A stretch of 64,000 bases of DNA from an uncultured Candidatus Bathyarchaeia archaeon (GCA_964473665.1 CAYYPV010000008.1:607-64606), one strand, 5' to 3'. Shown: positions 2,173 through 40,044, numbered from the stretch's first letter. Made by a program: numbers and translations. The notes: generated by a model from the letters alone, not told the origin.

Positions 2173-3273
2173 CTATCGTTCTCTTTTGCCTTTAATGAAT
2201 TCGTCCACCCATCTCTTTGCCACTTCGTATGGTGCCTGAACTGGCGGATGCTTGAATGCGTATGCAGATATGCTTGTTAATGGGCCTGAAATTTTCCTAT
2301 CTAGCCCTATTTTCGCGGCTCTTATTGCATCAATAACTACGCCGCCGCTGTTCGGTGAGTCCCAAACGTCTAACTTAACATCGATTGTACAAGGAGTGTC
2401 TCCGAAGTATTTGCCTTCAATGGAAATGTAACATATTTTTTTATTTTCAAGAAAATCTACAAAATCGCTCGGTCCTATATGTAGCGGAATCGTGTAGGGA
2501 ACCATTGCTTTCACGGCGCTGGTTTTACTTATTCTTTTTGAAACTAACCGTGTTTGTTCAAGCATATTTAGAAAATCGGTGTCGCCGCCTATGTTTAGTT
2601 GGTAGCTTTCACCTATTCTTACGCCGCGTTCAACCAGCATTTTAACGATTGACTTATGCAAGACAGTTGCGCCGATCTGCCCCATGACATCGTCGCCAAT
2701 TACTGGCAGTTTTGCTTTCTGAAATTTTTCCTGCCAATCTTTATCGGAAGCTATGAAAACAGGCATACAATTCAAAAATGCGCATCCGGCGTCGATTGCC
2801 TGTTGAGCGTACCAACGAGTTGCCTGTTCGCTTCCCACAGGCAAATAGTTTAAGACTACGTCAACCTCTGTTTCGCGAAGGATAGCTGCAACATCTGCTG
2901 CCCTATTTTTCTTATCGACTTTTACGATTGGTTTTACGTATTTTCCTATACTGTCCATGATCTGCCCTTGCATAACTTGGACTCCGAGTTCTGGAACTTT
3001 GCAGAAGACTCGAGTATTGTTTGGTGGACTGTAAATAGCGTCTCCGAGATCTTTTCCTACTTTTCGCGAATCAATGTCGAATGCTGCAACGAATTTTATA
3101 TCCCTGATGTGGTATTCGCCGAATTTAGTGCGTAGCAATCCTGGTACAGTTTGATTCTCCTTAGCATTCTGATAGTAGTGTACTCCTTGAATTAATGCTG
3201 AGGAACAGTTCCCCACTCCGATGATTCCAACATTTATTCCATTTTTAGCCAACTGTATCCTCTTATTTTTCAT
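2173..3273 (-). CDS. myo-inositol-1-phosphate synthase (archaeal type)
   Basis: N-terminal NAD-binding GIIGVGNCSSALIQG motif. The NYLPVGSEQATRWYAQQAIDAGCAFLNCMPVF block matches the MIPS family, and the length is about 366 aa. Confidence 0.85.
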   Translation of the reverse strand: MKNKRIQLAKNGINVGIIGVGNCSSALIQGVHYYQNAKENQTVPGLLRTKFGEYHIRDIKFVAAFDIDSRKVGKDLGDAIYSPPNNTRVFCKVPELGVQVMQGQIMDSIGKYVKPIVKVDKKNRAADVAAILRETEVDVVLNYLPVGSEQATRWYAQQAIDAGCAFLNCMPVFIASDKDWQEKFQKAKLPVIGDDVMGQIGATVLHKSIVKMLVERGVRIGESYQLNIGGDTDFLNMLEQTRLVSKRISKTSAVKAMVPYTIPLHIGPSDFVDFLENKKICYISIEGKYFGDTPCTIDVKLDVWDSPNSGGVVIDAIRAAKIGLDRKISGPLTSISAYAFKHPPVQAPYEVAKRWVDEFIKGKRER

Positions 3274-3467: not shown

Positions 3468-4160
3468 TTACGCCTTCACTATCTCTTCTGCATTCAACTT
3501 ATGTTTGCCGGTTACCATTGGTGACAGGTAGTGCAGTATAGCCATCGAGTAGACATGCAGTATTATCAATGCTACGAATAGGTAAGCGAGGAACAAGTGA
3601 AGTATTCTAGTGGCTATCATCGGGTCGTTTACGCCGAAAATTGAACCTAGCCAACCAATCCAAGTGTATAGAAAGTGGAAGCCAACTTTTGTTAGGAAGT
3701 CTGGGAAGCCCTGCATGACTCCTGTTAGACCGATAAGCAGAGTTAGGATAGCAAATCCCCAGAAATCAATCCATACGCCTGGATCAACTTTCCGTATGAA
3801 TTTTTTCTTGTCAACATCATATTTGATAGGTTCTCCTGGTCCCGACCTAAATCCTAGCCACGCCATTGTTTCCGCATAAAGATATTTGATACCCCATATG
3901 TTTGGGATTTCCCATTGGATTGCGCCGGTTATACTGAGGTAGTATATGTTTATGATTACTGCGGCAAGCCAGAATCCGCCTATCCAAACATGCAGCTCAT
4001 GTACGTTGTTGAAGAATCCGAGTACGTTTTTCCCGCCCAACTCGTATAAGCCGCTGATTTCAAAGCCGGTTATGAGCAGCAGTACCATAGCTGCGAAGTT
4101 CACCCAGTGAATAATACGTAAAGCAAGGGTATGGCGTTGGACGGTTACTCCTTCAACCAT
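3468..4160 (-). CDS. [NiFe]-hydrogenase b-type cytochrome membrane subunit (HyaC-like)
   Basis: The first predicted helix carries the RIIHWVNF His motif. Further conserved His residues lie in later hydrophobic helices (HELHVWIGG, ILHVYSMAILH). The gene sits immediately downstream of the hydrogenase large subunit. Confidence 0.75.
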   Translation of the reverse strand: MVEGVTVQRHTLALRIIHWVNFAAMVLLLITGFEISGLYELGGKNVLGFFNNVHELHVWIGGFWLAAVIINIYYLSITGAIQWEIPNIWGIKYLYAETMAWLGFRSGPGEPIKYDVDKKKFIRKVDPGVWIDFWGFAILTLLIGLTGVMQGFPDFLTKVGFHFLYTWIGWLGSIFGVNDPMIATRILHLFLAYLFVALIILHVYSMAILHYLSPMVTGKHKLNAEEIVKA

Positions 4161-4187
4161 TTTTCATCCTCTCCGCCATTTACAGCA

Positions 4188-6026
4188 CTAAAGTTTTGTT
4201 ATCAGTCTTTTTCCTTCGGGTGTTATTATGTGGACAGCGCATGCGAGGCATGGATCGAATGACCTGATGATGGCCAAGGCTAAGGAAGTATTATAACTGT
4301 CGACACCAGCGGTAACAGGTGCAGGCTCCATGTTAAGGTCTGTTAGATGATGCGGCGCCAGCGCGATTCCTAATGAGTCACCCCACTTTTGCGGTGCAGC
4401 AACACCCCACGCTGAGAGATTAACGTTTGCAGTTGGGTATATGGCGTTGGCTACGTCTGAAACTCTCAAGTTTTTAGGCAGCCATGTGGTTCCGCAGGAT
4501 AGTGCATATTCAGCTATGCCCAGTCTACCCTGGTCATCTCTTGGTGAAAAGAGCCAGGTGCCGGGTACAACGCATTGGTATCTGCTGATCTTCTTGCCGC
4601 TGATTTCCAAATAGTGTAATAATGCACCGCGTGGAGCATCCCATAATCCAAGCCCTGAACCTGTTGTGGGGACATCTACATAGTTAACAATAGGACTGTT
4701 CATGTAGGATTTTAGGGCAGCTATCCACTCGAACATTTTGTTGGCAACTGCTAAGCTGAAGAAAACTCTTCCCGCAACTCTATCAACCACTGAACCGTTA
4801 GGATTCAGTACGGTCCATGAAACACTTCCAGTTTTACCTGGAGAAACATCTAATCCGGTTGCTGGATTAATTGTGCTGAAGGCGACAGGGTCCTTCCACG
4901 TCAGTCCCCATGTGTTAATCATTCGTGCAAGCGGTCCTACTTCGTATACTTTATTGTTGTAGCGTGGAGCCTTTAACCATGAGTAAGCTGCGGGTTTTTG
5001 GGATGACTGATTTGCAGGTTGTATAGGAACTGTTTCGCCTACTGTTGGATTTAATTCACTTCCACTGCTGTACCATGAATATCCTACATCCTCTAAAACC
5101 AGAGTTGGGTCAAATAGTGTTTGCTTTGGAGCAGTATCACCGCTTTGCCAGGCACCACTCCATGCGAGTGAATTCTTTCTTCCGTTCTTAGGGTCAATCC
5201 AGTCAGCGTAATTTTGATAATCAGGGAAGCAACCGTATGATAAGAAGTTCCCGGTTCCTTGACCGATTTTGTCTAATCCAACAGATGCGCCGATAAGACT
5301 GTCTATTGCGCTGGCTATAGTGCTGTTTTGAGCAACTACTGCGTTAAAGTCGGCCTGCATGGTTGTTGCTACAAATTCCCATAGATTAACCATTCGGGCG
5401 TATGTGGCCGCTATTTTATCAAGTGTTGGTTGGGCGCTAATACCTCCTGGATATTCCGTCATATGGTGCGGAAATTTTCCTCCCCAAATTGCTACAATTT
5501 CACTGGCGAGTCTTTGGATCTGGACCGCTGCTGCGTAGCTCGATCCTAGGTTTATGCTTGATATACCAAGAGTACCGAGTGCAGGTGGCACCATTGGCGG
5601 GTATTTGGCGAGTACACCTAGTTCCGGTCCCATGAGTATGTAGAAGTGAAGTACGTGATCATACAAGTAGTATGCACCGTGTAGGATGTTTCGAATTAAA
5701 ACAGCTGCAGTTGGTAAACTGTCTTCCACGCCGAACGCTTGGTCTAGGGCTAATATGGATGTCTGACCATGTGGAGCTGGGCAGACGCCGCATATTCTCT
5801 GAGCGATCATCCATGCATCTCGCGGATCTCTTCCATTAAGGAAAATTTCGAATCCTCTGAACATTGTGCCTGTGCTGTATGCTCCTCCATTTTTACCAGT
5901 TGAGTCAACAACTTGTACTCGCTGCCATGGATTTACAGCACCTGTTCCAGATACGTTTTCCAGATTCATCTGTATCTTAAGGTGCCCCTCAATCCTAGTT
6001 ATCGGATCAATTGTTACTGTTACCAT
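4188..6026 (-). CDS. [NiFe]-hydrogenase large subunit (group 1 membrane-bound uptake type)
   Basis: N-terminal RICGVCPAPHG (RxCGxCxxxH) and C-terminal DPCLACAVH motifs are present. A C-terminal extension after the His is available for endopeptidase processing. The gene is paired with a Tat-dependent small subunit. Confidence 0.9.
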   Translation of the reverse strand: MVTVTIDPITRIEGHLKIQMNLENVSGTGAVNPWQRVQVVDSTGKNGGAYSTGTMFRGFEIFLNGRDPRDAWMIAQRICGVCPAPHGQTSILALDQAFGVEDSLPTAAVLIRNILHGAYYLYDHVLHFYILMGPELGVLAKYPPMVPPALGTLGISSINLGSSYAAAVQIQRLASEIVAIWGGKFPHHMTEYPGGISAQPTLDKIAATYARMVNLWEFVATTMQADFNAVVAQNSTIASAIDSLIGASVGLDKIGQGTGNFLSYGCFPDYQNYADWIDPKNGRKNSLAWSGAWQSGDTAPKQTLFDPTLVLEDVGYSWYSSGSELNPTVGETVPIQPANQSSQKPAAYSWLKAPRYNNKVYEVGPLARMINTWGLTWKDPVAFSTINPATGLDVSPGKTGSVSWTVLNPNGSVVDRVAGRVFFSLAVANKMFEWIAALKSYMNSPIVNYVDVPTTGSGLGLWDAPRGALLHYLEISGKKISRYQCVVPGTWLFSPRDDQGRLGIAEYALSCGTTWLPKNLRVSDVANAIYPTANVNLSAWGVAAPQKWGDSLGIALAPHHLTDLNMEPAPVTAGVDSYNTSLALAIIRSFDPCLACAVHIITPEGKRLITKL

Positions 6027-6028
6027 TT

Positions 6029-7165
6029 TTACATTTCCTCCTGCTTCGGTTTTCTTACAGTCCTAATTACTAAGTGAGCTGCAACTCCAACTGCGCTAGC
6101 GATTACTAGAGCTTCACCCCAGTCTTTAGCTGAATATCCTAATAATACTGGCAGATTTGGAAGTTCACCGTAAAGTGCGCCTTGGTTTCCCGGAATGTCG
6201 GGGAATGTTGGTTGAGCGCAGCCAATGCAAGGCGCGCCTGGCTCCACACAGTAGCTAACATGGTCATTCCACAGTCTAATAGCGCAATCTGTGTAAGTCA
6301 CTGGACCTTTGCAGCCGAGTTTGTATCGGCATCCTTCTTCTCCAGGTTTAAGCGCGAACTGCCCATGATCATAGTATGGTCGGAATGGGCACCTATTGTC
6401 ATGCATAAGATATTGATAGAATGCTTCAGGTCTACCGTATTCATCTAGAGTGGGCACAATGCCCTGAATGAGGTCAGCTAAGGTTAATATAAGGTGATCT
6501 GGATGACCTGGGCATGTGGCGCCTGCAACTATTGCTTTTCCAGCTATGCCGACATTAGTTAGACCCTGTTGATCTAGGAATTTTTGCAGCCCGATAGCGC
6601 CTGTCACGTTGTTAGCGACTGTAGAATATGAGAGGGGAGAATATTCGCCTGGCACTCCTCCAAATGAGCCGCAGTTTCCAAATGAAATTAAGACATCAGA
6701 GGAACCTAGAGTTTTTACAGCGGCTACTACAATATCCCTGAAATCTTTTCCGGCTACTGTAGTATATCCAGGATCCTGCATTGCTCCTTCAACTATTAGA
6801 ATTCGTTTTCCAGGTGTAGCGTTCGCCCAGACAGTATCCTTTAGGTACTCTAGTAATGAGCCTGATGCAGGATGTAACGTTTCTTGGTAGTCGGGCAGCC
6901 TTATGCCTAATGGTTGGTTGCCTACCATTGTAGTGTCGTTGCCGACTATTATTTCTGTGAGCAGTTGCACTACGTCTGGGTTGACTGCTTGAGCGAAAGA
7001 GACAGTACACCCACTGCACGCTGCTCCATGTAGCCAGCATATGTGCCAATAGTCAGTTGCTGCTGCTGCGAATACTTCCTTTATCTCTGGTTTGTATAGC
7101 TCGATTGTTGCTGCTGCGCCGATTACTCCTGCTAGCTTTATGAAGTCACGTCTTTTTATTTTCAT
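6029..7165 (-). CDS. [NiFe]-hydrogenase small subunit with twin-arginine signal
   Basis: N-terminus MKIKRRDFIKLAGVIGAAA carries the Tat motif RRxFxK. Multiple Cys clusters are present for Fe-S ligation. A C-terminal hydrophobic anchor helix is present. The gene is adjacent to the large subunit. Confidence 0.9.
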   Translation of the reverse strand: MKIKRRDFIKLAGVIGAAATIELYKPEIKEVFAAAATDYWHICWLHGAACSGCTVSFAQAVNPDVVQLLTEIIVGNDTTMVGNQPLGIRLPDYQETLHPASGSLLEYLKDTVWANATPGKRILIVEGAMQDPGYTTVAGKDFRDIVVAAVKTLGSSDVLISFGNCGSFGGVPGEYSPLSYSTVANNVTGAIGLQKFLDQQGLTNVGIAGKAIVAGATCPGHPDHLILTLADLIQGIVPTLDEYGRPEAFYQYLMHDNRCPFRPYYDHGQFALKPGEEGCRYKLGCKGPVTYTDCAIRLWNDHVSYCVEPGAPCIGCAQPTFPDIPGNQGALYGELPNLPVLLGYSAKDWGEALVIASAVGVAAHLVIRTVRKPKQEEM

Positions 7166-7323
7166 ACCCTATTTTTCCTCCAACAATTCTGAAAATTGGA
7201 TAACGTTTGTCATTTTTTGTCACTTTAAGGTATTTAATGCTTATCATCATTTGCAATACATCTTTTCGGATATTTAGAAAAAACATAACAATCATTAAAT
7301 TCATTTATGTGAGATACAAATCC

Positions 7324-8409
7324 ATGAAGTTAAGTGATTACCGGGATCCCGCCTTAACTAATGCGATCGCTGAGAAAATAAAAGATTTAACTTCGACAGC
7401 TCACGTTAAGTTTTGTCATATATGCGGCACTCACGAATATGCGGTTACTCATTATGGTCTGCGCACTCTTCTTCCAAGAAATCTTGAGGTAATAGCTGGG
7501 CCTGGCTGTCCAGTTTGTGTAGTCCCAGCTAGGGATATTGATGAGGCTGTTTGGCTTGCTCTTAACGGTGTAACTGTTGCAACTTTCGGCGATATGCTTC
7601 GTGTTCCGGGATCAGACATGTCTTTGGCCGATGCGAAAGCTAAGGGGGGCGATGTTCGGGTTGTTTACGGTGTTGATGAAGCAGTTAAGATGGCGTTGAA
7701 ATATCCTGAGAAAAGTTTTGTGTTTTTCGCTGTCGGTTTCGAAACTACCGTTCCAGCTAATGCTGCTGAAATATTAAGTGGCCCTCCGAAGAACTTGAGT
7801 TTTCTTGTTTCACATAGATTGATTCCTCCTGCTATGGAGCTTCTTCTTGGTGTAGGCGACCTTAAAATCGACGGCTTCATCTGCCCTGGACATGTTGCAA
7901 CGGTAATCGGCGTTAAGGCGTTCAGAATGTTTCCTGAAGTTTACAGTATGCCTACAGTGATAGCTGGCTTCGAACCTGTGGACGTGATGATTAGTCTTTA
8001 CATGTTGATGAAACAGTTGAAGGAGAACTCAGCCCGTGTTGACAATGAGTACACCCGTTCAGTAACTGAGGAAGGGAATGTTAAGGCTCAGAAAATTATT
8101 GAAGAAGTCTTTGAAGTTGATGGGGGTAATTGGAGAGGAATTGGAAGAGTACCGTCTTCAGCGTATAAATTGAAGGGTGAATATGCTAATTACGATGCCA
8201 GAGTAATATATGACATTAAAGTAGGTCCAGCGAAAGACATCCAGCCGGGCTGCAGCTGCCATTTAGTGATTATTGGAAAAATAAAGCCTAATGAATGCAC
8301 GATGTTCATGAAGACCTGCACGCCTGAAAATCCATATGGACCTTGCATGGTTTCGCATGAGGGTACTTGTCGTATATGGGCGGAACATGGTGAATATCAA
8401 ACTCTTTAG
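7324..8409 (+). CDS. hypD: Hydrogenase maturation factor HypD
   Basis: CGxH-type motifs (CHICGTHE, CPVCVVP, FAVGFETT, CPGHVA) are present. The ORF track begins at 7207, but the family-typical start is MKLSDYRDPAL at 7324. The gene is divergent from the hydrogenase structural operon. Confidence 0.85.
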   Translation: MKLSDYRDPALTNAIAEKIKDLTSTAHVKFCHICGTHEYAVTHYGLRTLLPRNLEVIAGPGCPVCVVPARDIDEAVWLALNGVTVATFGDMLRVPGSDMSLADAKAKGGDVRVVYGVDEAVKMALKYPEKSFVFFAVGFETTVPANAAEILSGPPKNLSFLVSHRLIPPAMELLLGVGDLKIDGFICPGHVATVIGVKAFRMFPEVYSMPTVIAGFEPVDVMISLYMLMKQLKENSARVDNEYTRSVTEEGNVKAQKIIEEVFEVDGGNWRGIGRVPSSAYKLKGEYANYDARVIYDIKVGPAKDIQPGCSCHLVIIGKIKPNECTMFMKTCTPENPYGPCMVSHEGTCRIWAEHGEYQTL

Positions 8410-8516: not shown

Positions 8517-8723
8517 ATGCCTAAAGGCGAATTTATGAGTGCTGAATTAAAAATTGCTGTCGACTCAATGAAATGTATTCCCTGCGGTGTTTGCGTTCTC
8601 ATATGCCCTAAAGATGCGCTTATGATCAATGAGCGGGGAGTTGAGCAGATTAAGGGTTGCAACGGTTGTGAGCTCTGCGTTAAATATTGTCCGCTTGTTG
8701 CGATTGAGGTGAAGAAAGAGTAA
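8517..8723 (+). CDS. 2x[4Fe-4S] ferredoxin
   Basis: Two CxxCxxCxxxCP motifs are present (CIPCGVCVLICP and CNGCELCVKYCP) in a 68-aa protein. Confidence 0.8.
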   Translation: MPKGEFMSAELKIAVDSMKCIPCGVCVLICPKDALMINERGVEQIKGCNGCELCVKYCPLVAIEVKKE

Positions 8724-9895
8724 TGTATGATGTCATAGTTGTCGGGGCTAGCCCTGCGGGTATAATGGCAACGTGGAAAGCTTCGTTATCCGGGGCAAGA
8801 GTTCTTCTTTTAGATAGAAAAACGCGTTTAGGGGTTGACCATCAACCTGCTGATACTACTTTTACGGGAATGTTTAAGCGAACTGGGCTGAATATTCGAG
8901 ATGAGTATTTGGTTCACAGAGTAAGAGGCATGCATATAGTATCTCCGGCGGGTTTTCGTTTCGCTATAAATAGTCCAGGTTTTGTTGTAGATAGGCAGGC
9001 GTTTGACCTCTATTATCTAGGTTTAGCTCATGATTCAGGTGCTGAAATTAAAGCGGGCGCCCTGGTAGTTGGGCTGGAAAATTCACTAGGAAAAAGGCGT
9101 GTTATTGTTAGGGAATTAGGTGAAAAGAAAATTTATGATGGAAAGATCATTGTTGGAGCAGACGGCATTGAATCTTATATTGCAAAGTGGGCTGGAATTA
9201 GACCTATGGTTCACCCTAATGAAATAGCGTCATCTGTTCAAGCGGAAATGATTGGGGTGGAAAATGAATATCCGGACTATTTCCAATACTTCTTAGGAAG
9301 TCAAGTAGCGCCTGGCTGGAAAGCTACTGTTTCGCCGAAGGGAGATTCTAAGGCTAGTGTGGGTGCATTTGTACGTAATGCACCTAGGCCTGCCATTTAT
9401 TATTTTAATAATTTTGTCTATAAAAATGGAAAAGAAAAATTTAGAGATGCAAAAATCTTGAAAATGCAGGCGGGAGGAGATCCTGTGGCTACAATACCTA
9501 ACCAAACTGTCGGCGATGGAGTAATGGTTGTTGGAGGCGCGGCTGGTCAAGCAGGATTGTCGTATGGAATGTTATGCGGTATTTTTTGCGGCGAAGTGGC
9601 TGCTGAATCAATTGAAGCTGATGACCAATCAAAGCCTTTTCTTTCCAAGTACCAGCAGAGATGGCGCAAGGAACTGTTAACGGAATATAGGTTAGGATAC
9701 TATATGCTTAAGGCGATTGAGAAAATGCGTGACGAGGATCTAGATAGTATTGTGAAAAGCCTTCAGGATACCGATGTTTCTGAGCGAATTCCTAGACATC
9801 AATCTCTATTTGGAAAGGGTATGTCTGGGGCGCTTTTAGTAATGCAGAAAGATCCCAGAATTCTTAATCTAGTAACACGTATATTGCCAGTTTAA
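8723..9895 (+). CDS. FAD-dependent geranylgeranyl reductase family oxidoreductase
   Basis: N-terminal YDVIVVGASPAGIMA Rossmann FAD motif and a GADGIES block. The gene is translationally coupled to the upstream ferredoxin, since the fd stop overlaps this start. Confidence 0.6.
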   Translation: MYDVIVVGASPAGIMATWKASLSGARVLLLDRKTRLGVDHQPADTTFTGMFKRTGLNIRDEYLVHRVRGMHIVSPAGFRFAINSPGFVVDRQAFDLYYLGLAHDSGAEIKAGALVVGLENSLGKRRVIVRELGEKKIYDGKIIVGADGIESYIAKWAGIRPMVHPNEIASSVQAEMIGVENEYPDYFQYFLGSQVAPGWKATVSPKGDSKASVGAFVRNAPRPAIYYFNNFVYKNGKEKFRDAKILKMQAGGDPVATIPNQTVGDGVMVVGGAAGQAGLSYGMLCGIFCGEVAAESIEADDQSKPFLSKYQQRWRKELLTEYRLGYYMLKAIEKMRDEDLDSIVKSLQDTDVSERIPRHQSLFGKGMSGALLVMQKDPRILNLVTRILPV

Positions 9896-11130
9896 TCATC
9901 GGATTCAAGCTTTGAAATAGGATAGGGTAAAATTACGCCCTCGGGTATTTTTTGGATATAGCTCTTTCTAAACTCGGAATTTTGCATAAGACAACTGGGC
10001 ACGTTAGTCGAAAAGATTTTATGTTTTCTTATGCGTTTCCATATTTTTTGCAGCGTTTCATCTCGAACGTTCCCAAATGTTAACGGAATATATGCGCACG
10101 GGGTTACGAAGCCATGTGGATTGACGTAAACCCATCTTTTTCCAGCTATGCAACCAAGTCCTGTTGGACCTTTCATACAAGAGGTCGTGGAAACTCTAGG
10201 TGTTCGCGAGTTTGGTGAACTGTAAGTTTTTTCTAGTTGAACTAACCGTTCTCTATCTTTCACAGTCAGAATGACATCTTCTCTCCTGAGCAATTTTCCC
10301 GTTGGAATGATATCTGCTACTGTAATTTCATGCACCCCAAGTTCCTCTGAGAAGTGTATTAAATCGTCAATGTCGCCGTTATTGAGGCGATCCGTAGTTG
10401 CGTACGTGGAGACCCCGACAAGGAGACCGGCGTTTAGGCATGCCTTGATGGTATTTACAGCTTTGCTGTGCGCTCCTTTTAGTTGAACTAGTCCGTCATG
10501 TATGTTTGAATCTCTGCTGTGGAGAACTATGAAGATAGCGTCTAACCCCGCATTCTTCAATTTTTTTGCAGTATCGTCCGTAAAGGTTGCTGCGGGAGTG
10601 AATAATACGCACCAGCATTCTTTGGATTTAACGTATTTTATGATGTCGAAAACATCTTTTCGTAAGATGGGGTCGCCTCCATAAATTGTGACGCTGAAAG
10701 CCCCCATTTGAACAACATCATCGATTATGGATTTCAGCTCTTTATTTGTAAGTTCATTAGCGTAGTCGTAGCTACCCATGTAGCCGCAGTAGATACAATC
10801 GCATGCACATGCACGCGTAACAGCTATTGTAGCTGCCCCTGGATTCCTTTGCTTTGTTAATTCAGATTTTATTTCACCCCACATAGCTCTGCTGAAAGTT
10901 TTACTTGGAATGGGTGGAAAGAAAAGTGAAAAAACAATGTAGTCTTTGTTTGCAAATGCTGGCTTTTCTTTACATACAAATTCTTTGAACAGGTTTAATG
11001 CTGGTTTAGCGAAGGGGGATAAGGGTCCTTCACTACAGACTTCGTTAACAACCCCGTTATTGACTTCAGCGCTGATCTTCAGACCGGGCTGCCGTAGCAA
11101 GGTTACCTTCAAATTAGTCCTTTCTCCCAT
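9892..11130 (-). CDS. Radical SAM protein with C-terminal twitch/SPASM-like Cys domain (paralog A)
   Basis: CACDCIYCGY (CxxxCxxC) lies at residues 108-115. The C-terminal GCIAGKRW...TPC...SC auxiliary-cluster region follows. An N-terminal domain of about 100 aa is shared with paralogs B and C, with motifs GPLSPF and FFPPIPSKTFSR. Confidence 0.7.
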   Translation of the reverse strand: MGERTNLKVTLLRQPGLKISAEVNNGVVNEVCSEGPLSPFAKPALNLFKEFVCKEKPAFANKDYIVFSLFFPPIPSKTFSRAMWGEIKSELTKQRNPGAATIAVTRACACDCIYCGYMGSYDYANELTNKELKSIIDDVVQMGAFSVTIYGGDPILRKDVFDIIKYVKSKECWCVLFTPAATFTDDTAKKLKNAGLDAIFIVLHSRDSNIHDGLVQLKGAHSKAVNTIKACLNAGLLVGVSTYATTDRLNNGDIDDLIHFSEELGVHEITVADIIPTGKLLRREDVILTVKDRERLVQLEKTYSSPNSRTPRVSTTSCMKGPTGLGCIAGKRWVYVNPHGFVTPCAYIPLTFGNVRDETLQKIWKRIRKHKIFSTNVPSCLMQNSEFRKSYIQKIPEGVILPYPISKLESDD

Positions 11131-12433
11131 CTAGTTTGCTTATTGGATAAGGTAAATTTTTTTCATTGATACTGTCTTGAATCTTCTTAAAGTAATGTTG
11201 CTTGTAGTAAGGATCAGCCCATGCGCAGTTTTTTGGTGCTTTTTTAAATAGAGGATGCTTCCTCATCGCCTTCCAGATATCCTTCATGCTTTGATTGCGT
11301 GTATTCCCAAATGAAATGGGGACATGAAAGCAAGGCATAACTTCACCTGTGGGGGATAGCCACATCCATTTTCGACCTGCAAAACACCCAATAATTTTGG
11401 GATCGCGGAGAATGAGGGAGCCGCACACTCTGGATCCTTCCAGTTCGTTAGCTTCGTTTTGGAATTTTACTAATCGTGCCCGATCTTCTTCTTTCAATAC
11501 GTCATTTTCACGATACGCCCATCTACCTGCTGGAACAACTTCGTCGATTAAAATCTCTTGCACCCCTATAGAGCTACAATATTGATAAAGATCATTCAGC
11601 GCTTTAATATCTGAATTTCCTGGAGCGGCGGTATATTCTATTATTACGACCAATCCCTCTTCCACCGCATACTTAACGTCTGATGCAACTTTTTCAAAAA
11701 TCCCGTTAATTCCTCTGAACTTGTCGTGAATATTGGGGTATGGGCTGTCAAGGCTTAGATGGAGATAATCAAGCCCTGCCTCCTTCAACTTTTTCACGTA
11801 TGCTTGAGTTAAAAGAAAGCCGTTGGTTATCAGATGACTGGTGGCTTTATTTTTATCGATATGTGAGATCAAATCAAAGATATCTTTCCGAAGTGTAGGT
11901 TCGCCTCCTTCAAAGCTTACGTTGTAGGTTCCCAGTTCAATTGATTGGTCTATAGCATTACAGAGCTCTTCCGTTGATAATTCTGGATCACCTCTTATGC
12001 CGAACGCTATACAATGTTGGCAGGTGCATTGGCATTTGCTTGTAGTCAATATCATTAGACTTTCAGGTGTGTATTTGCCGAAGAGGCGATTGTTTATTTG
12101 GGCTTTAATAAGTCGGTTGAAGGGTCCGCTAGGAGCAGGAGGTATTAAACTGGATATGACAACATCATTTCCGCGGACGGCGGTCACTTTCTCCAACGAC
12201 GCATACGTGTTAAATCCTTCACATATGGGCCTTGCCAGTCTGGAAAGTGGACCTTGAGCAGTTACGTGCGCCTTTTTGCCTTCAAGTTCGAGGAAAAGCT
12301 CAAAGCCTAACCCTTTGTAGATGAAATGTTTCACAATGGACTCCACTATGTTTTGTAAAAAAATAAGATTAATAACAAAAAGCTTTCTATGGATTAAGCT
12401 GTGCGCGCTATGATAGATTATCAAGTGTATCAT
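11114..12433 (-). CDS. Radical SAM protein with twitch/SPASM-like domain (paralog B)
   Basis: CQCTCQHC radical SAM motif. C-terminal GCFAGRKW...MPC...NC region. N-terminal domain motifs GPLSRL and LIPPAPSGPFNR. The first 29-33 aa of the ORF-track model overlap the divergent neighbour. A GTG at 12346 or 12334 is a more plausible start. Confidence 0.7.
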   Translation of the reverse strand: MIHLIIYHSAHSLIHRKLFVINLIFLQNIVESIVKHFIYKGLGFELFLELEGKKAHVTAQGPLSRLARPICEGFNTYASLEKVTAVRGNDVVISSLIPPAPSGPFNRLIKAQINNRLFGKYTPESLMILTTSKCQCTCQHCIAFGIRGDPELSTEELCNAIDQSIELGTYNVSFEGGEPTLRKDIFDLISHIDKNKATSHLITNGFLLTQAYVKKLKEAGLDYLHLSLDSPYPNIHDKFRGINGIFEKVASDVKYAVEEGLVVIIEYTAAPGNSDIKALNDLYQYCSSIGVQEILIDEVVPAGRWAYRENDVLKEEDRARLVKFQNEANELEGSRVCGSLILRDPKIIGCFAGRKWMWLSPTGEVMPCFHVPISFGNTRNQSMKDIWKAMRKHPLFKKAPKNCAWADPYYKQHYFKKIQDSINEKNLPYPISKLDGRKD

Positions 12434-13609
12434 CGGAGAGGGCTTTCAGTAAATATTGAGGGCGATGAAAAAAAATTAAGACTAAGAGCTCACGGTCCTC
12501 TCGCAGTTTTTACCAGTCCAATCCTAAATAAAATAAACAGGATGCTTGAAAGTGAAAAGCCGATAGCTGTCAAAAAAGATGCAGTCATATTTTCAACTTG
12601 GTTACCGCCAATTCCAAGCGGATCCTTTAAAAGGTTAATAGATGCGGAGATCGATATCGCTCTGCACCATAAATACGTGCCTCAAGCTGTGTCTCTTAAC
12701 GCTTTCAAGCAATGTAGTTACAGTTGCGAGAACTGCAATATGGTGAGATCTCCCGGACCTGAACTTTCAACTGAGGAATTAAAGGGGTTCATCGATCAGG
12801 TGGTAGATCTCGGCGCAGTCACGATAGGTTTTTCGGAGGGAGATCCGCTTACACGCGAAGACATAGTGGATTTGGTTAGATATGTTGATAAGAATAAGGC
12901 AATTGCCAGCATATTCACTCCTGGTGCAATGTTGACTGAGTCGCAGGCTGAGAATTTAAAGAGGGCGGGACTTTACGCCGTGATCATAGGTTTCTGCAGT
13001 CCTATTCCAGATGAGCATGATGCGGCTAGAGGGGTAAAGGGAGCTTTTTCAATGGCGACGAAATCCATAAAAAATGCATTAGATGCAGGGTTATATGTCT
13101 CGATTCATACGCATGCAAATCCACGTATGATTGCAGAGAAAAAGCTCGACGGCCTCTACGACCTTGCATCTCAGCTGAATGTCCATGAGTTTACAATATG
13201 GGAAGCAATTCCTTCATGGGGTTACCGCGATAAGGATGATTTAATGCTGAACAAAGCGCAGAGAGATTACATTCTAGAAATGCGTAGAAAATTGAATAAA
13301 ATGCCGGCTGGCCCGAGAATATTTTCTATGAGCTTCTTTGAGGGACCTGACTTTTTAGGATGTATGGCTGGTAGGCGGTGGCTGAATTTGGTGGATTCGG
13401 GAGACTTAACGCCGTGCATTTATACGCCTATATCTTTTGGAAATATAAAAAATGAGAAAGTTGCAGATATATGGAAAAAAATGCGTGAGAACCCATTGTA
13501 CAGACGTAGTGAAAAATCATGCATGATGCTAAATCCCGAATTTAGATCCAAGTTTATCAAAAAAATACCTTATAACGCTAAGCTTCCAGTTCCTCTAGAA
13601 ACTTTATGA
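12401..13609 (+). CDS. Radical SAM protein with twitch/SPASM-like domain (paralog C)
   Basis: CSYSCENC radical SAM motif. C-terminal GCMAGRRW...TPC...SC region. N-terminal motifs GPLAVF and WLPPIPSGSFKR. An alternative start ATG at 12410 (MIDYQVY) avoids overlap with paralog B. Confidence 0.7.
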   Translation: MRAMIDYQVYHRRGLSVNIEGDEKKLRLRAHGPLAVFTSPILNKINRMLESEKPIAVKKDAVIFSTWLPPIPSGSFKRLIDAEIDIALHHKYVPQAVSLNAFKQCSYSCENCNMVRSPGPELSTEELKGFIDQVVDLGAVTIGFSEGDPLTREDIVDLVRYVDKNKAIASIFTPGAMLTESQAENLKRAGLYAVIIGFCSPIPDEHDAARGVKGAFSMATKSIKNALDAGLYVSIHTHANPRMIAEKKLDGLYDLASQLNVHEFTIWEAIPSWGYRDKDDLMLNKAQRDYILEMRRKLNKMPAGPRIFSMSFFEGPDFLGCMAGRRWLNLVDSGDLTPCIYTPISFGNIKNEKVADIWKKMRENPLYRRSEKSCMMLNPEFRSKFIKKIPYNAKLPVPLETL

Positions 13610-13677: not shown

Positions 13678-14676
13678 CTATAATTTTGGGATAGCCATCA
13701 GTATATTGTATGCTGCAGCCGCATTGATTATAACAAGCATGATTGTGTAGTTGATTACGCCTATATATGCGAATTTTATGTGAGCTATTTGCTCACTTGA
13801 ATGGTTATAGGCATTTATCGTTGCACGGATCTTGAAGAGACCGATTATAAAATACAATGCTAGGAAAAACCACGGTAGTGCGAAGACGTACCAAACTACT
13901 ATGAGCCAAAGATATTCAGCTATGCTCATGGTGAATGTAAATAGTATGGTTTGTTTGGATGTTAAGGGGTTAAAACGCATAGAGTCTTTATCGTGGTAAG
14001 CTAAACAACCGATTATACTTGCAAGGTATATGACAGCTGCTTGCCATGAAAGTATTTTCCCGGGTGCTACGACAGCTATTCCGCCAGCTACTATTAGCCC
14101 GCTTAGGGATCGGTATATTCGTCTTTGGAGTTCTGTAATTTTTTTAAAAGGTGGACTGGCAGAGTAAGTAAATCCCCAGACAAGCATCAGTAGAGCCACA
14201 GCGAAACATGTGAAATTGAATACGAAATTTGCAACATATAGGCAAAGCACTGTCTCAATAACAATAAAAGAAATAACAAGTTTAGGTGACAGCAGTCCAG
14301 TTACAAGCGGTAATGTTGAATTTGGCGGACCTAACCTTTCATCTTCACCTGTCCACCAATCATATAGCATATCGGCCTGTGAGATGACCCTGGTCAGCAG
14401 TCCTGCCACAAATATGCCTAATATTAGCTTCCATAAAGGAAGAATAGGCACTCCGATGCTCATAAACAAAAGTGCACCAGCACTAGCAGTTAATGCACCC
14501 CATGGCAACCATAGTATTCTATGTACGCAGAAAATCGCTTGAATTTTAGCCTTAAGATCTTTACCAGTAGGCCCAGCTACGCCGAACCCGATATCCCATA
14601 TAGTAGGGTTAAACTGATGAATTAGCCGGTCAGCCTTATCGCTATTCTTCGCCATATTCACATTTCTCACAAACAT
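13678..14676 (-). CDS. Polytopic membrane protein, divergent UbiA-prenyltransferase-like
   Basis: At least eight hydrophobic segments. An Asp-rich loop, ADMLYDWWTGEDERLGPPNSTLPLVTG, resembles the UbiA NDxxDxxxD...RPL..G motif. A second HDKDS motif is present. The assignment is tentative. Confidence 0.35.
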   Translation of the reverse strand: MFVRNVNMAKNSDKADRLIHQFNPTIWDIGFGVAGPTGKDLKAKIQAIFCVHRILWLPWGALTASAGALLFMSIGVPILPLWKLILGIFVAGLLTRVISQADMLYDWWTGEDERLGPPNSTLPLVTGLLSPKLVISFIVIETVLCLYVANFVFNFTCFAVALLMLVWGFTYSASPPFKKITELQRRIYRSLSGLIVAGGIAVVAPGKILSWQAAVIYLASIIGCLAYHDKDSMRFNPLTSKQTILFTFTMSIAEYLWLIVVWYVFALPWFFLALYFIIGLFKIRATINAYNHSSEQIAHIKFAYIGVINYTIMLVIINAAAAYNILMAIPKL

Positions 14677-14811: not shown

Positions 14812-15309
14812 CTAGTAAACGTATGGAATGAGCTTTTTACTATGTTGCATATAGTCCTGATATTCTTTTCCGAATTTCGCGATGAGTACGCGTTCCTCGA
14901 TTTTTATTCTGTAAAGAATAATGGGTATTATGAAGATTGTTATTAGAAGGCCGTATAAGCTGTGAAAGAATATGGGAACAAGAAAATAGCCTAATATAAC
15001 CCCAAAGTAAATGGGGTGCCGGACATTTTTGTAAATGCCGTATGTGATCAACTTGTGTTTTGGCAATGTTCTTACCATTAGCGACCACTGTTTACCCAGA
15101 GTACGTTTAGCTTGTATGCCGATAGCAACTCCTATTGTGCCAAGTGTTAGTCCAGCGAAACTTACAATATCAAAGCGGTAAATCATTCTTTGAACAAAAG
15201 TGAAGTCTAAGACACTTATGGCTAAGGCGGAAAACCAAATTATTCCTCCGAGGAGGAGTTCTATGTCTAATTGCCTTTTTTTTTTGCATGTCTTAAATAG
15301 CGCCTTCAT
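14812..15309 (-). CDS. Isoprenylcysteine carboxyl methyltransferase / phospholipid methyltransferase family membrane protein
   Basis: Conserved NVRHPIYFGVILGYFL motif (RHPxY...G) typical of the ICMT/PEMT family. Four to five TM helices, 165 aa. Confidence 0.7.
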   Translation of the reverse strand: MKALFKTCKKKRQLDIELLLGGIIWFSALAISVLDFTFVQRMIYRFDIVSFAGLTLGTIGVAIGIQAKRTLGKQWSLMVRTLPKHKLITYGIYKNVRHPIYFGVILGYFLVPIFFHSLYGLLITIFIIPIILYRIKIEERVLIAKFGKEYQDYMQHSKKLIPYVY

Positions 15310-15483: not shown

Positions 15484-16362
15484 CTATTTGCGTAAAGATA
15501 GTGCCTTCTTCAACAGAGTGAAGTTGTAAAAATCTTCTGGAACTTTTTTTATGTAACCCAACTCCACCATAAGGTTAGTGACCTGCGTCATTGCTTTTAC
15601 GCTTTCAGATATGTCGATATGAGGGCGATTATAGTTCAAAGCTTCTCTAATGGTTTCAGCGGAAATTCCTATGTAGTTGGAACTGATCTCTGCAGCTTCA
15701 TCAGGATTAGTGCTGCAAAATTTCTCAGCTTTTATACATGCGTTTATGAATTTTAAGGCTAAATCGGAGTGGTTTCGGAGATAATCATCTGTTACGGTTA
15801 TACTACAACCGGGTGTTTTCGGAAAAATATCTTTTCCTCTTACTAGAATCTTTGCCACCCCCAGCTTAACCATCATCGTGGCATAAGGCTCGACATTAGT
15901 TGTTGAATCAACAGCTCCACTTATCAGAGCGAGAATAGCCGCATCCCCGCTTGGAAACCTAAGTATCTTTGTATTCCTAGATGTTATATTGTATTTTTTG
16001 AAAAAAGCTTGAGAGGTTAAATCTTTCATTCCACCTTCATTGGGCAATCCAATTCTTTTTCCTTTAAGTTCATAAAAATCGTTTACATTCGCATCATTGC
16101 GAACTACTGTAACTGGTTCTTCATAACCTGAACCAGCGATAACTACCATCGGATCTCCATTGGCTCTTCCGCTTACAACTCGTGTCCAAGGCATAACTGC
16201 AAACGAAATTTCGCCGGAGATCAATTTATTCGGCAGCATCCAAGCTGTCGGTTCAACTGTTAAAGAAATGTTTAGATTTTGCTCTTTGAAAAATCCCTTT
16301 TCGTACGCTATGTATGTAGGCATTTGACATACGCCTCTTATAACTCCAACTCCGATGGACAA
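15484..16362 (-). CDS. NMT1/THI5-like (substrate-binding-protein fold) protein, apparently cytoplasmic
   Basis: YEKGFFKEQNLNISL and GLPNEGGMKD blocks are typical of NitT/TauT-type SBP and NMT1 domains. No signal peptide or lipobox is present. The start is TTG with a GGAGGT RBS 8 nt upstream. Confidence 0.5.
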   Translation of the reverse strand: MSIGVGVIRGVCQMPTYIAYEKGFFKEQNLNISLTVEPTAWMLPNKLISGEISFAVMPWTRVVSGRANGDPMVVIAGSGYEEPVTVVRNDANVNDFYELKGKRIGLPNEGGMKDLTSQAFFKKYNITSRNTKILRFPSGDAAILALISGAVDSTTNVEPYATMMVKLGVAKILVRGKDIFPKTPGCSITVTDDYLRNHSDLALKFINACIKAEKFCSTNPDEAAEISSNYIGISAETIREALNYNRPHIDISESVKAMTQVTNLMVELGYIKKVPEDFYNFTLLKKALSLRK

Positions 16363-16468: not shown

Positions 16469-17386
16469 ATGTCAGTTTCACTACGTGACATACTTTACGG
16501 ATTTGCAGCACCGAAAGAGCGCACATTAAAGAATAGAATTTTAGGTTTCGTCACACTTCAAAAACCAGCAGTAACAGCTATGGGCGTACCATTCGCGTTG
16601 GCCGGCGCAGTATTAGCAGAGAGGCAATTAGGGATAACTTGGCGACTAATAATCTCTCAAAAACTTATGTCATTTATTTTAGGATTACTCGCGGTCTGGT
16701 TGCTAATTAGTGCTACGCTTACCATTAACAGTATAATCGATGTTGAAAGAGATAAGAAAAAGTACACTATGCGCCCTATAGCAACGGGGCTGATTAAAAG
16801 ATGGGAGGCCACTGTGTATGCGTTAGTCATGGCTGTCGTTGCCTTGATTATAACGTATTTAACTTTCAATTGGGCAGCTGCAGCTATAGGATTTCTTGCT
16901 TTAGTGCTGGGAACAGTTTATGCTGCCTATACACGCGACAAAATCGGTTATTTAACTATGGTTTTTATTCCAGCACTTATGCCGATTGGGGGCTGGGCAG
17001 CGATATCAATTGGAACTTTATTAACGCCTTTACCTTGGTTGCTTTTTCTCTGTCTTATTTTCCATCAAACTGCGCATGGCATTGCTGCTCAGGCACATTA
17101 CCCGTATGTTAAGGCTTTCTTTGTAAGACCTCGACCAAACATAGAAGCGATGATGTACCGTCTTTGCTTTGTGATTGAACCCTTCATAGTACTTTTGATG
17201 TATTACTACGTAACCATAAATTTGCTATTTTTAGTGATAGTATTATTTTTAACAATCTATGGTCTACATTCAGCCTCATACCTGAAAGAGCCCAGAACTT
17301 TTGAGAAAGGCGCAAAAGCACGTGTGGCTATCGGTAATTACGGTATCATCTTCTTTTTGTCATTAAGTATTCTAGCTGGAATTTAA
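16469..17386 (+). CDS. UbiA family prenyltransferase (DGGGP-synthase-like)
   Basis: NSIIDVERDKKKYTMRPIATG matches the UbiA NxxxDxxxD...RP..G first Asp-rich motif. About 8 TM helices, 305 aa. Confidence 0.75.
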   Translation: MSVSLRDILYGFAAPKERTLKNRILGFVTLQKPAVTAMGVPFALAGAVLAERQLGITWRLIISQKLMSFILGLLAVWLLISATLTINSIIDVERDKKKYTMRPIATGLIKRWEATVYALVMAVVALIITYLTFNWAAAAIGFLALVLGTVYAAYTRDKIGYLTMVFIPALMPIGGWAAISIGTLLTPLPWLLFLCLIFHQTAHGIAAQAHYPYVKAFFVRPRPNIEAMMYRLCFVIEPFIVLLMYYYVTINLLFLVIVLFLTIYGLHSASYLKEPRTFEKGAKARVAIGNYGIIFFLSLSILAGI

Positions 17387-17497: not shown

Positions 17498-18709
17498 TTG
17501 ACTTTGAAATATGATGTCGTGGTGGTTGGGGCGGGTCCTGCTGGCTCGATGGCGGCAAAGCACGCTGCTGATAAAGGATCCAAGGTATTGTTGGTTGAGC
17601 GGAAGAATGAAGTTGGAGTTCCGAGCCACTGTGCAGGCTTTATTATGAGGCGCGCGGAAAACTATGTAAATTTAAACGATGAGATAGTCGCGAATAAGAT
17701 TTATGGGTTCAGATGCTATGGCCCAAATGGGATTAGCGCGGTTGCCAGAAGCAAAGATTGTATTGGTTATACTATTAGGCGTGAAGCTTTAGACAAGTAC
17801 ATTGCTAACCAAGCGATTAATTCTGGCGTTGACTTGATGATAGGTGGGACGGCTGTTGGTGCGCGGAGAGTTTCAGGCGAAGTTAAAGTGAATATTATGC
17901 ATTTAAATGAGAAAATTCCTGTTGATGCAAAAATTATAATTGGTGCAGACGGGGTAGAGTCGAATGTTGCTAAATGGTTTGGGATGAAGAAACCTTCGGA
18001 TTTGATGTCCTGTATGCAGTTTGATGCTTTAAGTGAAAGCCCTGAATTACCACGCGATTTAATTGAAATGTACATAGGTCAATGTTGGACGCCTAAGGGG
18101 TTCGGATGGATTTTCCCTAGAGGCAACGACGTAGTTAAGGTCGGTGTAGGTGTGAAAGCGGGGAAAAAACCAGCCGTATCATATTTGAAAGACTTAATTG
18201 ATTTACATCCTGTAGTATCTAAGAAACTTGCGCAAGCAAAAATTGTTAGATTAAGTGGAGGAATAGTACCATTAAGCGGTCCAGTTGAAAGAACTGTTGA
18301 TAACAATATTGTATTGACTGGCACAGCTGCCGGATTGATTAATCCTCTGAGCGGCGGAGGCAACGATTATGCGATAGTTTGTGGAGGTTTAGCTGGCGAT
18401 ATCGCGGGAGAAGCTGCTGAAGAAAAAAATTTTTCCAAAAAATTCTTATGTAAATATGAGGATCAATGGAAGAATATTTTTGGTAAAGAGCTTAGAAATG
18501 GATATTGGGGAAGAATGGTTTTTCAAAATATGCCTGATAAATTATATCAAAAGTTTATTCCAACTTTGCAAGAGGTGGAAGATTTAACGAATATGTTTGT
18601 GAGCTACGATGTTGGACGTCTACTTGATGTGGTTGCTAAAAAATCGCCAGTATTATCTTCATTTATTAAAAGTGTTAAGCGCTTTGGTTTTTTGCCTACT
18701 TTAAATTAA
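17498..18709 (+). CDS. Geranylgeranyl reductase (digeranylgeranylglycerophospholipid reductase family)
   Basis: YDVVVVGAGPAGSMAA FAD motif. The conserved catalytic SHCAGF Cys is present. GADGVES and PKGFGWIFPRG blocks are typical of archaeal GGR. Confidence 0.85.
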   Translation: MTLKYDVVVVGAGPAGSMAAKHAADKGSKVLLVERKNEVGVPSHCAGFIMRRAENYVNLNDEIVANKIYGFRCYGPNGISAVARSKDCIGYTIRREALDKYIANQAINSGVDLMIGGTAVGARRVSGEVKVNIMHLNEKIPVDAKIIIGADGVESNVAKWFGMKKPSDLMSCMQFDALSESPELPRDLIEMYIGQCWTPKGFGWIFPRGNDVVKVGVGVKAGKKPAVSYLKDLIDLHPVVSKKLAQAKIVRLSGGIVPLSGPVERTVDNNIVLTGTAAGLINPLSGGGNDYAIVCGGLAGDIAGEAAEEKNFSKKFLCKYEDQWKNIFGKELRNGYWGRMVFQNMPDKLYQKFIPTLQEVEDLTNMFVSYDVGRLLDVVAKKSPVLSSFIKSVKRFGFLPTLN

Positions 18710-21510: not shown

Positions 21511-21733
21511 CATTTTATCAGTTAAATCTACATTTTACCTTTCTTTGACTTTCTCGCCTTTGCCGTTGACAAATACATAGTATAAAAATGCTTCATATTT
21601 CAAAGTCAAACTTTAATTAGATGTATTAAAGGCGTAATATGCGTAATAAGTTGCGCTTCATCTTACCGTAAGGCATATAAATTAAAGTTAGTATGTTTGG
21701 TTTTAGCATTTTGAATATTTGGAGAGGATAAAT

Positions 21734-37383: not shown

Positions 37384-37427
37384 GAGAATAAAAGTGCCTA
37401 ACGCCTCTAATAGACACTGAATTTAGT

Positions 37428-38849: not shown

Positions 38850-38855
38850 AGGTTT

Positions 38856-40043: not shown

Positions 40044-40044
40044 A

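Follow-up and report, generated by a model that had tools for sequence, protein, structure and literature searches.

Three paralogous radical SAM proteins with a shared N-terminal domain in an isoprenoid gene cluster of an uncultured Bathyarchaeia archaeon

Introduction

Radical S-adenosylmethionine (SAM) enzymes acting on inert lipid tails, including Tes, Grs, Gms and Gmm, have altered how archaeal membranes, and the lipid biomarkers on which palaeoclimate research draws, are understood. One of these, Gms, the synthase of glycerol monoalkyl glycerol tetraethers (GMGTs), was described in 2024 as a homologue of AhbD with a 100-aa N-terminal extension annotated as COG4001, which is predicted to form a hydrophobic pocket directed towards the active site and to bind lipid (PMC11214058). 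The enzyme from M. okinawensis contains three [4Fe-4S] clusters, of which two are fully cysteine-ligated auxiliary clusters, and an N-terminal domain of six helices (PMC11186832). Known representatives are WP_062369926.1 of T. guaymasensis, PF0647 of P. furiosus and METOK_RS04425 of M. okinawensis (PMC11214058, PMC11186832), and no Gms structure is present in the PDB. Here we analyse three adjacent genes, termed W1, W2 and W3, within a 64,000-nucleotide stretch of DNA from an uncultured Candidatus Bathyarchaeia archaeon (GCA_964473665.1, CAYYPV010000008.1:607-64606; hereafter the window).

The products of these genes resemble Gms in being AhbD/NirJ-related SPASM radical SAM proteins with an extension of approximately 100 aa ahead of the CxxxCxxC motif, and in belonging to a family of anaerobic archaea that also occurs in some bacteria; acting on a lipid tail, as shown for Gms, would be a further likeness. 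We hold with moderate confidence that W1-W3 are anciently diverged paralogues of an uncharacterised, Gms-like SPASM/twitch radical SAM subfamily that tailors the hydrocarbon chain of an isoprenoid membrane compound. A lipid-type radical SAM enzyme with an N-terminal substrate domain is already a known kind of protein, to which W1-W3, present in triplicate within an isoprenoid gene cluster, would belong as members of an unstudied family.

Results

W1 (9892..11130, minus strand) is an open reading frame (ORF) of 412 aa, with Pfam matches to Radical_SAM (65 bits) and SPASM (34 bits, profile positions 1-49 of 67). W2 (11114..12346, minus strand) encodes approximately 410 aa from a GTG codon at 12346, and matches the same two families at 78 and 38 bits. 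W3 (12401..13609, plus strand), identified from its ORF, Pfam matches and alignment, encodes 402 aa and is divergent from W2. All three therefore combine a Radical_SAM match with a partial SPASM match, the latter extending from profile position 1 to 49-52 of 67. Their pairwise identity is 31-34% across the full length (tblastn 220-277 bits, E 1e-66 to 1e-85), a similarity well beyond chance, such that the three intact neighbouring paralogues proposed from an initial sequence-only reading, two on the minus strand and one divergent on the plus strand, are indeed present. The longest ORF at W2 spans 11114-12433 (439 aa), beginning about 30 residues ahead of the start of the three-way alignment; the match of the 410-aa protein to W1 and W3, and the 54-bp spacer that it leaves, point to the GTG at 12346 as the start. 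As W2 overlaps the start of W1 by 17 nt on the minus strand, these two genes are probably co-transcribed, while the AT-rich spacer between the divergent starts of W2 and W3 (12347..12400, 54 bp, read off the sequence) is presumed to be a divergent promoter region.

The same layout is borne out in each protein: an N-terminal domain of about 95 aa, which bears the PPxPS motif, is followed by the CxxxCxxC core and by a C-terminal SPASM region, which is truncated. The N-terminal domains correspond to 10837..11130 (minus strand) in W1, where they comprise aa 1-98, and, from alignments, to 12062..12346 (minus strand) in W2 and 12401..12688 (plus strand) in W3. The alignment reproduces the motifs as they had been quoted, with the GPL motif appearing as EGPLSPFAKP, QGPLSRLARP and HGPLAVFTSP, the second motif as FFPPIPSKTFSR, LIPPAPSGPFNR and WLPPIPSGSFKR, and the C-terminal motif as GC[IFM]AG[KR][KR]W...[TM]PC...[SN]C in all three. 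The radical SAM motif begins at residues 104-108 (with W2 counted from its likely start), and the proteins have the features of the SPASM/twitch subgroup of the radical SAM superfamily, namely CxxxCxxC within a partial TIM barrel and a C-terminal cysteine-containing auxiliary-cluster domain.

The AlphaFold2 model of W1, with a predicted local distance difference test score (pLDDT) of 91.7, places strands at residues 6-14, 17-24 and 27-34 of the N-terminal domain, followed by a helix at approximately 38-53, a short strand, the PPxPS loop at 72-76 and a second helix at 77-92. Modelled in isolation (pLDDT 83), the domain adopts the same fold as in the full-length model. The prediction is of a family-specific alpha/beta domain of approximately 95 aa, linked to the barrel by the PPxPS loop. 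Pfam has no match in the first ~100 residues of W1-W3, and a search of the N-terminal domains of 17 family members against Pfam returned nothing at E<=1, PqqD and RiPP recognition elements (RREs; RiPPs being ribosomally synthesised and post-translationally modified peptides) included. The domain also went unrecognised by NCBIfam, in line with the initial reading, in which it was not recognised from characterised radical SAM families. The architecture as a whole is less novel than that reading had suggested, as an extension of ~100 aa on an AhbD-like core was published for Gms in 2024 (PMC11214058, PMC11186832).

A hidden Markov model (HMM) of the domain, run against 1.84 billion representative proteins, gave 78 matches at E<=1e-3, none of which carried the full SPASM motif. 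The domain directly precedes the radical SAM motif in all full-length matches but three, which have no radical SAM motif and of which two are matches to proline-rich repeats. In one 800-aa metagenomic protein (P0180), a fatty-acyl-CoA-reductase-type NAD_binding_4 domain (aa 5-242) is fused to the N-terminal domain (aa 393-481) and the radical SAM core. Separately, bacterial long-form members of 464-494 aa, such as P0012 (aa 1-100), are extended at the N-terminus by about 45 residues, and within this extension the GPL-type motif is found again two or three times, so that the beginning of the domain seems to be repeated internally.

Conservation was assessed in an alignment of 175 distinct family members, using W1 residue numbers, and this alignment demonstrates the cofactor sites. 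The SAM-cluster triad C108/C112/C115 is invariant (100%), and the C-terminal cysteines C327, C345 and C380 are 98% conserved, with no further conserved cysteine beyond these and the triad. H370 and M382 are conserved at 90% and 89% respectively, the PPxPS motif, ~36 residues ahead of the triad, at 97-99%, and the glycine of the GPL motif at 93%. The CX2CX5CX2-3C motif of a second auxiliary cluster is absent from every family member checked, whereas the AhbD genes adjoining family members do carry it. As only three C-terminal cysteines are conserved, and the second-cluster motif is absent, each family protein can hold at most one auxiliary cluster, the ligands of which are perhaps these three cysteines with a non-cysteine fourth. 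W1 and W3 depart from the family consensus at several positions that are at least 90% conserved and that are retained in W2.

Homology searches recovered approximately 150 clusters of similar proteins, and 336 relatives emerged when one genome of each species was scanned. The family is widespread among Methanosarcinales, ANME-2, Methanocellales, Methanopyrus and several bacterial phyla, and occurs in Bathyarchaeia too. In a bootstrapped neighbour-joining tree, with AhbD/NirJ-like proteins as outgroups, W1 paired with P0002 (57% identity), and this pair joined homologues from Methanoperedenaceae and the archaeon JdFR-19 with a bootstrap of 98. W2 and W3 each paired with their own orthologue from a Methanocellales metagenome-assembled genome (MAG; locus L064) at 61% identity and a bootstrap of 100. 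Members linked to a geranylfarnesyl diphosphate synthase (GFPS) formed a clade with a bootstrap of 80, and those linked to UbiA and ThiC a clade with a bootstrap of 99. Since each paralogue has its own orthologues elsewhere, the divergence of W1-W3 is old. Such an old triplication, together with the departures of W1 and W3 from the consensus, fits functional divergence into distinct roles, as far as can be judged from sequences.

Gene context was counted across the 80 best-matching genome loci, in which linkage to isoprenoid genes is directly observed. A polyprenyl synthetase lies directly upstream on the same strand in 42 of them, representing Methanosarcina, Methanolobus, Methanococcoides, Methanohalophilus, Methanohalobium, Methanimicrococcus, Methanolapillus and three Methanocellales MAGs. 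The best model for the Methanococcoides synthetase is GFPS_Meth, at 342 bits, which is under the model's cutoff. CcmE is found within two genes in 29 of these 42 loci. The full order, seen at L053 (7352-11209) and in ~28 other Methanosarcinales loci, is AhbD (minus strand), CcmE, a geranylfarnesyl-type diphosphate synthase and then the family's own radical SAM gene (plus strand). The AhbD gene of the Methanosarcinaceae loci is divergently oriented and genuine, the Methanococcoides reference having been verified at 664 bits to TIGR04545, and an A-type ATPase operon follows the radical SAM gene. The block groups together genes for cofactors of the membrane electron transport chain. The published position of GFPS (MM_0789, Mmah_1452, MA0606) matches these CcmE-GFPS-radical SAM loci, and GFPS, which makes the side chain of methanophenazine, is so far the sole enzyme tied to that pathway (PMC3017947, PMC8546582). 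Searching the literature by locus tags of the GFPS region, and for methanophenazine biosynthesis, found no characterisation of the adjacent radical SAM gene, although the search with MA060x tags was swamped by unrelated matches.

A second arrangement, ThiC-UbiA-radical SAM-UbiA, occurs at L006 (7817-12240), L009 (7813-12236), L007 (9053-14514) and L005 (3788-6029). Its hosts are two Cloacimonadota genomes, an unclassified bacterium and a Halobacteriota MAG, which suggests horizontal transfer of the block; in the archaeon's locus, L007, a geranylgeranyl reductase (GGR)-like gene is added. The block places a thiamine-pyrimidine-type synthase within a prenyltransferase operon. The core arrangement of the window cluster is repeated at L064: a GGR-like orthologue (59%) is accompanied there by a pair of W2-type genes (61% and 52%), by a single gene of W3 type (61%) and by another, unrelated radical SAM gene. 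Elsewhere, a site-2 protease (Peptidase_M50 with PDZ) adjoins the family member at L081 (6876-9212; M. kandleri, AE009439.1), L003 (8921-11218) and L001 (8065-11200). In M. kandleri and in L003, which is from a related MAG, the protease gene lies upstream in the same direction, 6 bp from the family member, and in L001 the two genes diverge. The window's own M50 gene, at 25369-26469, is away from W1-W3. No Tes or Mss was found within 10 kb of bacterial members, where there was only generic radical SAM similarity of 57-60 bits. A metagenome scan with W3 brought no new synteny, its matches being confined to the contig of the window itself and to a few relatives present in single copy; the contig of locus L083 (JGI metagenome Ga0187770) is identical to the window region.

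In the window, W1-W3 are flanked by a set of genes in the order GGR-like (plus), W1 (minus), W2 (minus), W3 (plus), UbiA-like (minus), ICMT (minus), NMT1/SsuA (minus), UbiA (plus) and GGR (plus). The first encodes a geranylgeranyl-reductase-like flavoprotein (8723..9895, plus strand) convergent with W1, which matches Pfam GGR_cat at 30.8 bits and NCBIfam GG-red-SF at 126.9 bits, under the 158.8-bit cutoff; its orthologues flank family members in L064, L007 and L004 (tblastn 456, 218 and 166 bits). The last (17498..18709, plus strand) is a geranylgeranyl reductase family protein scoring 238 bits to GG-red-SF, above the same cutoff, and 49 bits to GGR_cat. It is preceded by a UbiA-family prenyltransferase (16469..17386, plus strand; Pfam UbiA 81 bits) that matches no NCBIfam equivalog at cutoff. 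The polytopic membrane protein at 13678..14676 (minus strand) has no Pfam or NCBIfam match, but a UbiA HMM built ad hoc aligned to it weakly over its full length (20.8 bits, E 3e-8 with a target set of three sequences), and it is tentatively regarded as a highly divergent candidate member of the UbiA superfamily. An ICMT/PEMT-family membrane methyltransferase (14812..15309, minus strand) matches Pfam ICMT at 51 bits and PEMT at 40 bits. Finally, 15484..16362 (minus strand) encodes an NMT1/THI5-SsuA-family protein of periplasmic-binding fold (Pfam NMT1 84 bits; NCBIfam SsuA_fam 110 bits, sub-cutoff), which no transporter genes adjoin. This last gene was considered as a substitute for ThiC in making a head group, and rejected, the protein being without the multi-cysteine motif of yeast THI5.

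Upstream of the cluster, the window encodes a bona fide tetraether synthase Tes (100-1647, minus strand), which scores 674 bits to NF045702 (cutoff 450) and has a Zn_ribbon_HMPTM domain at its N-terminus, adjoined by myo-inositol-1-phosphate synthase (2173-3273, minus strand). The organism therefore makes glycerol dialkyl glycerol tetraethers (GDGTs) or macrocyclic lipids with inositol head groups. These genes are followed by those for a cytochrome b (Ni_hydr_CYTB) and for both subunits, large and small, of a [NiFe] hydrogenase (3468-7165, minus strand), and then by HypD (7207-8409, plus strand), between the hydrogenase genes and the radical SAM cluster. The order of the cytochrome b and hydrogenase genes is that of the methanophenazine-reducing Vht/Vho hydrogenase, an arrangement which implies a membrane-soluble electron carrier in this archaeon.

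Discussion

The case for lipid chemistry is made by the company that these genes keep. Because the steady partners of the family make, attach or saturate polyprenyl chains, and because one member is fused to a fatty-acyl reductase, the family is likely to tailor lipid chains. As in the proposal for Gms, the N-terminal domain and barrel may accommodate a long isoprenoid chain; by analogy with Tes and Gms, the 5'-deoxyadenosyl radical would remove a hydrogen atom from this chain at an unactivated sp3 carbon. A single auxiliary cluster, coordinated by three cysteines and possibly by Met382 or His370, could then trap or oxidise the substrate radical. Coordination by three cysteines and a methionine would parallel the C-terminal cluster of Tes, in which one cluster is coordinated in this manner and for which a cluster-assisted coupling mechanism has been proposed (PMC13459092). 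The outcome may be a carbon-carbon bond, as a cross-link or a ring, or another modification of the tail. Within the window, the two UbiA-type enzymes would build the substrate, which the two GGR paralogues would saturate and the ICMT-like enzyme would methylate, and the three radical SAM proteins would differ in the step that they carry out or in the position at which they act. As end products, a core lipid in modified form and a prenylated electron carrier akin to methanophenazine are both candidates.

Several observations weigh against this reading. Firstly, the substrate and reaction that we infer, together with the role given to the N-terminal domain, rest on gene context and analogy, no member of the subfamily having been characterised. 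Secondly, the tree has weak bootstraps (26-46) at the deep nodes joining W1-W3 with the clades linked to GFPS and to UbiA. Thirdly, the UbiA proteins of the window are not orthologous to those of L005-L009. Fourthly, some contexts are uninformative: the neighbour is the site-2 protease for the members of M. kandleri and L003, and a photolyase or hydrolase gene for those of several bacterial loci.

The CcmE-GFPS-radical SAM order, and the cytochrome-b hydrogenase neighbouring the window cluster, leave room for a role in making an electron carrier, although the occurrence of the family in cytochrome-free organisms argues that this would not be its sole function. It is possible, though unlikely, that the family supplies the missing radical SAM step or steps for methanophenazine or an unknown prenylated carrier, in which case the window cluster would be a full pathway serving the adjacent cytochrome-b [NiFe] hydrogenase, and the orthologue co-transcribed with CcmE and GFPS in Methanosarcinales its core enzyme.

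Rather than the chain, these proteins might form or tailor the ring of such a carrier, be it methanophenazine or an analogue, for the neighbouring hydrogenase, a proposal that we regard as unlikely. It would account for the siting of CcmE, GFPS and the radical SAM gene beside AhbD and the ATP synthase operon in Methanosarcinaceae, for the presence of ThiC, a maker of aromatic heterocycles, within the UbiA-radical SAM-UbiA operon of L005-L009, and for the cytochrome b, [NiFe] hydrogenase and HypD genes directly upstream of the window cluster. The cluster's combination of a binding-fold protein, radical SAM enzymes, UbiA, a methyltransferase and a MenJ-like reductase also echoes quinone pathways, and the biosynthesis of the methanophenazine head group is unknown (PMC8546582, PMC5244752). 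Yet the family extends to organisms free of cytochromes (M. kandleri, Bathyarchaeia) and to fermentative bacterial phyla, and the window shows no recognisable genes for making a phenazine or quinone ring. At L005-L009, the copies of ThiC pass ordinary ThiC cutoffs, so may be plain thiamine genes, and the association with GFPS suits chain tailoring equally well.

That W1-W3 are three Gms isozymes, which cross-link the biphytanyl chains of GDGTs made by the window's Tes and perhaps yield different GMGT isomers, we consider quite unlikely, despite the Gms-like layout of an N-terminal extension of ~100 aa on an AhbD/NirJ-like core (PMC11214058), the top NCBIfam matches to NirJ2 and AhbD, and the presence of Tes and inositol-1-phosphate synthase in the same window. 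The family was set apart from Gms by the published descriptions and tables of Gms, not by direct sequence alignment, and by these it differs in several respects. Its members are of ~400 aa, rather than 467-489 aa. They have three conserved C-terminal cysteines, allowing one possible auxiliary cluster, and no CX2CX5CX2-3C motif, and so differ from the full SPASM of Gms with its two fully cysteine-ligated clusters (PMC11186832). Their N-terminal domain is predicted by AlphaFold2 to comprise three strands and helices, a fold that would not match the six helices described for Gms. They are only 24-30% identical (102-122 bits) to a bona fide AhbD, that of Methanococcoides, compared with 36% (E 7e-79) between Gms and M. 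barkeri AhbD (PMC11214058). Their genes neighbour polyprenyl synthase, UbiA and GGR, whereas those of Gms neighbour gmm and grs. Lastly, the two kinds of gene are found in the same lineages. The Gms table of Li et al. lists AAM02109.1 (468 aa) from M. kandleri, AKB51788.1 (479 aa) from M. barkeri and 487-aa proteins from Methanohalophilus, while the family members of those genera are other genes, namely WP_011019348/AAM02193.1 (403 aa) in M. kandleri and the GFPS-adjacent genes of ~390-400 aa in Methanosarcinaceae. As the table entries and family members differ, Gms and the W-type family coexist as paralogues in Methanopyrus, Methanosarcina and Methanohalophilus. Furthermore, the Methanosarcinaceae, all of which have the family, are mainly producers of diethers, which counts against GMGT synthesis.

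Li et al. delimit one clade apart from the outgroups with lengths >420 aa, and Garcia et al. apply a minimum of 400 aa, which W1-W3 pass. Judged indirectly by comparison of tables and lengths, with no tree that includes Gms, the family appears to lie outside the clade of Li et al. Two word-index homology searches returned only family members and AhbD/NirJ-like proteins, and no canonical Gms, and in the loci retrieved around family members AhbD was the sole full-SPASM protein. Bathyarchaeota matches of 632-703 aa were considered as canonical Gms and set aside, being absent from the table of Li et al. By the features compared, W1-W3 are outside the validated Gms family, and we do not think that they are ordinary GMGT synthases. 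Nor are they Tes-like: Tes/GDGT-MAS (PDB 7TOL/7TOM) has a zinc-ribbon/rubredoxin domain and two extra clusters, and beyond the core shows no sequence similarity to W1-W3, in which Pfam and NCBIfam find no NF045702 or zinc-ribbon match.

A tetrapyrrole role, as AhbC/AhbD/NirJ-type enzymes of the alternative haem or haem d1 pathways with an accessory domain, is very improbable. The curated families that score best against W1-W3 are NirJ2 and AhbD (TIGR04055 and TIGR04545; E 1e-31 to 1e-40), with which the radical SAM core and the first half of SPASM align, and AhbD neighbours the family member in Methanosarcinaceae. However, the scores of 108-138 bits are far under the 500-bit cutoffs, and AhbD has no N-terminal domain and carries a CGxCxYxxxCGGC second-cluster motif that W1-W3 are without. 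The true AhbD of the Methanosarcinaceae loci is encoded separately, already standing beside the family member, and there are no further haem genes in the window cluster.

That W1-W3 are RiPP maturases with the N-terminal domain as an RRE is a reading we reject as having next to no likelihood: although the closest solved structures are the maturases SkfB, SuiB and CteB, and the domain is predicted to open with three beta-strands as RREs do, the SkfB and SuiB alignments span only the core (~280 residues), the domain is not an RRE by sequence or structure search, no plausible precursor-peptide ORF is present in the intergenic gaps of the window cluster, and the genes nearby include neither a protease nor an exporter but encode isoprenoid enzymes, in contrast to the peptide context of those maturases. 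Lipid chemistry is consequently the better fit of the two that had been set against each other from the sequence alone.

If the tailoring of isoprenoid chains is the function of W1-W3, theirs would be a further unstudied family of radical SAM enzymes acting on lipid tails. Methanophenazine was described as a cofactor in 1998, and its biosynthetic pathway has been open since; in the Methanosarcinaceae loci, across several genera, the family shares one apparent operon with the sole enzyme assigned to that pathway. If what the family makes is instead a core lipid in modified form, this could account for orphan isoprenoid biomarkers of methane-cycling archaea. Methanosarcina, which carries the GFPS-adjacent member, is genetically tractable.

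Additional features of the window

The window's ICMT-family gene at 14812-15309 has a counterpart of sorts in L005, where an Rce1-like CAAX prenyl protease (6146-6889, plus strand) lies downstream of the family member. ICMT and Rce1 are both families that process prenylated proteins in eukaryotes, and their co-occurrence with the radical SAM family may be coincidence.

Further into the window are genes for subunits of carbon monoxide dehydrogenase/acetyl-CoA synthase (CODH/ACS), for methenyl-tetrahydromethanopterin cyclohydrolase and for a LarA-like lactate racemase homologue (34506-41454, plus strand; 44767-45774, minus strand; and 26470-27732, minus strand, respectively). Since CODH/ACS and the cyclohydrolase are encoded, the organism is a methanogen-related archaeon; its CdhA is 52% identical to that of the Methanomicrobia archaeon JdFR-19, a hint as to the lineage of the window. 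The thermosome gene (Cpn60/TCP-1) is split between overlapping ORFs at 21719-22378 and 22375-23379, both on the plus strand, which cover profile positions 1-170 and 175-488, and reflect a frameshift, a sequencing error or a pseudogene.

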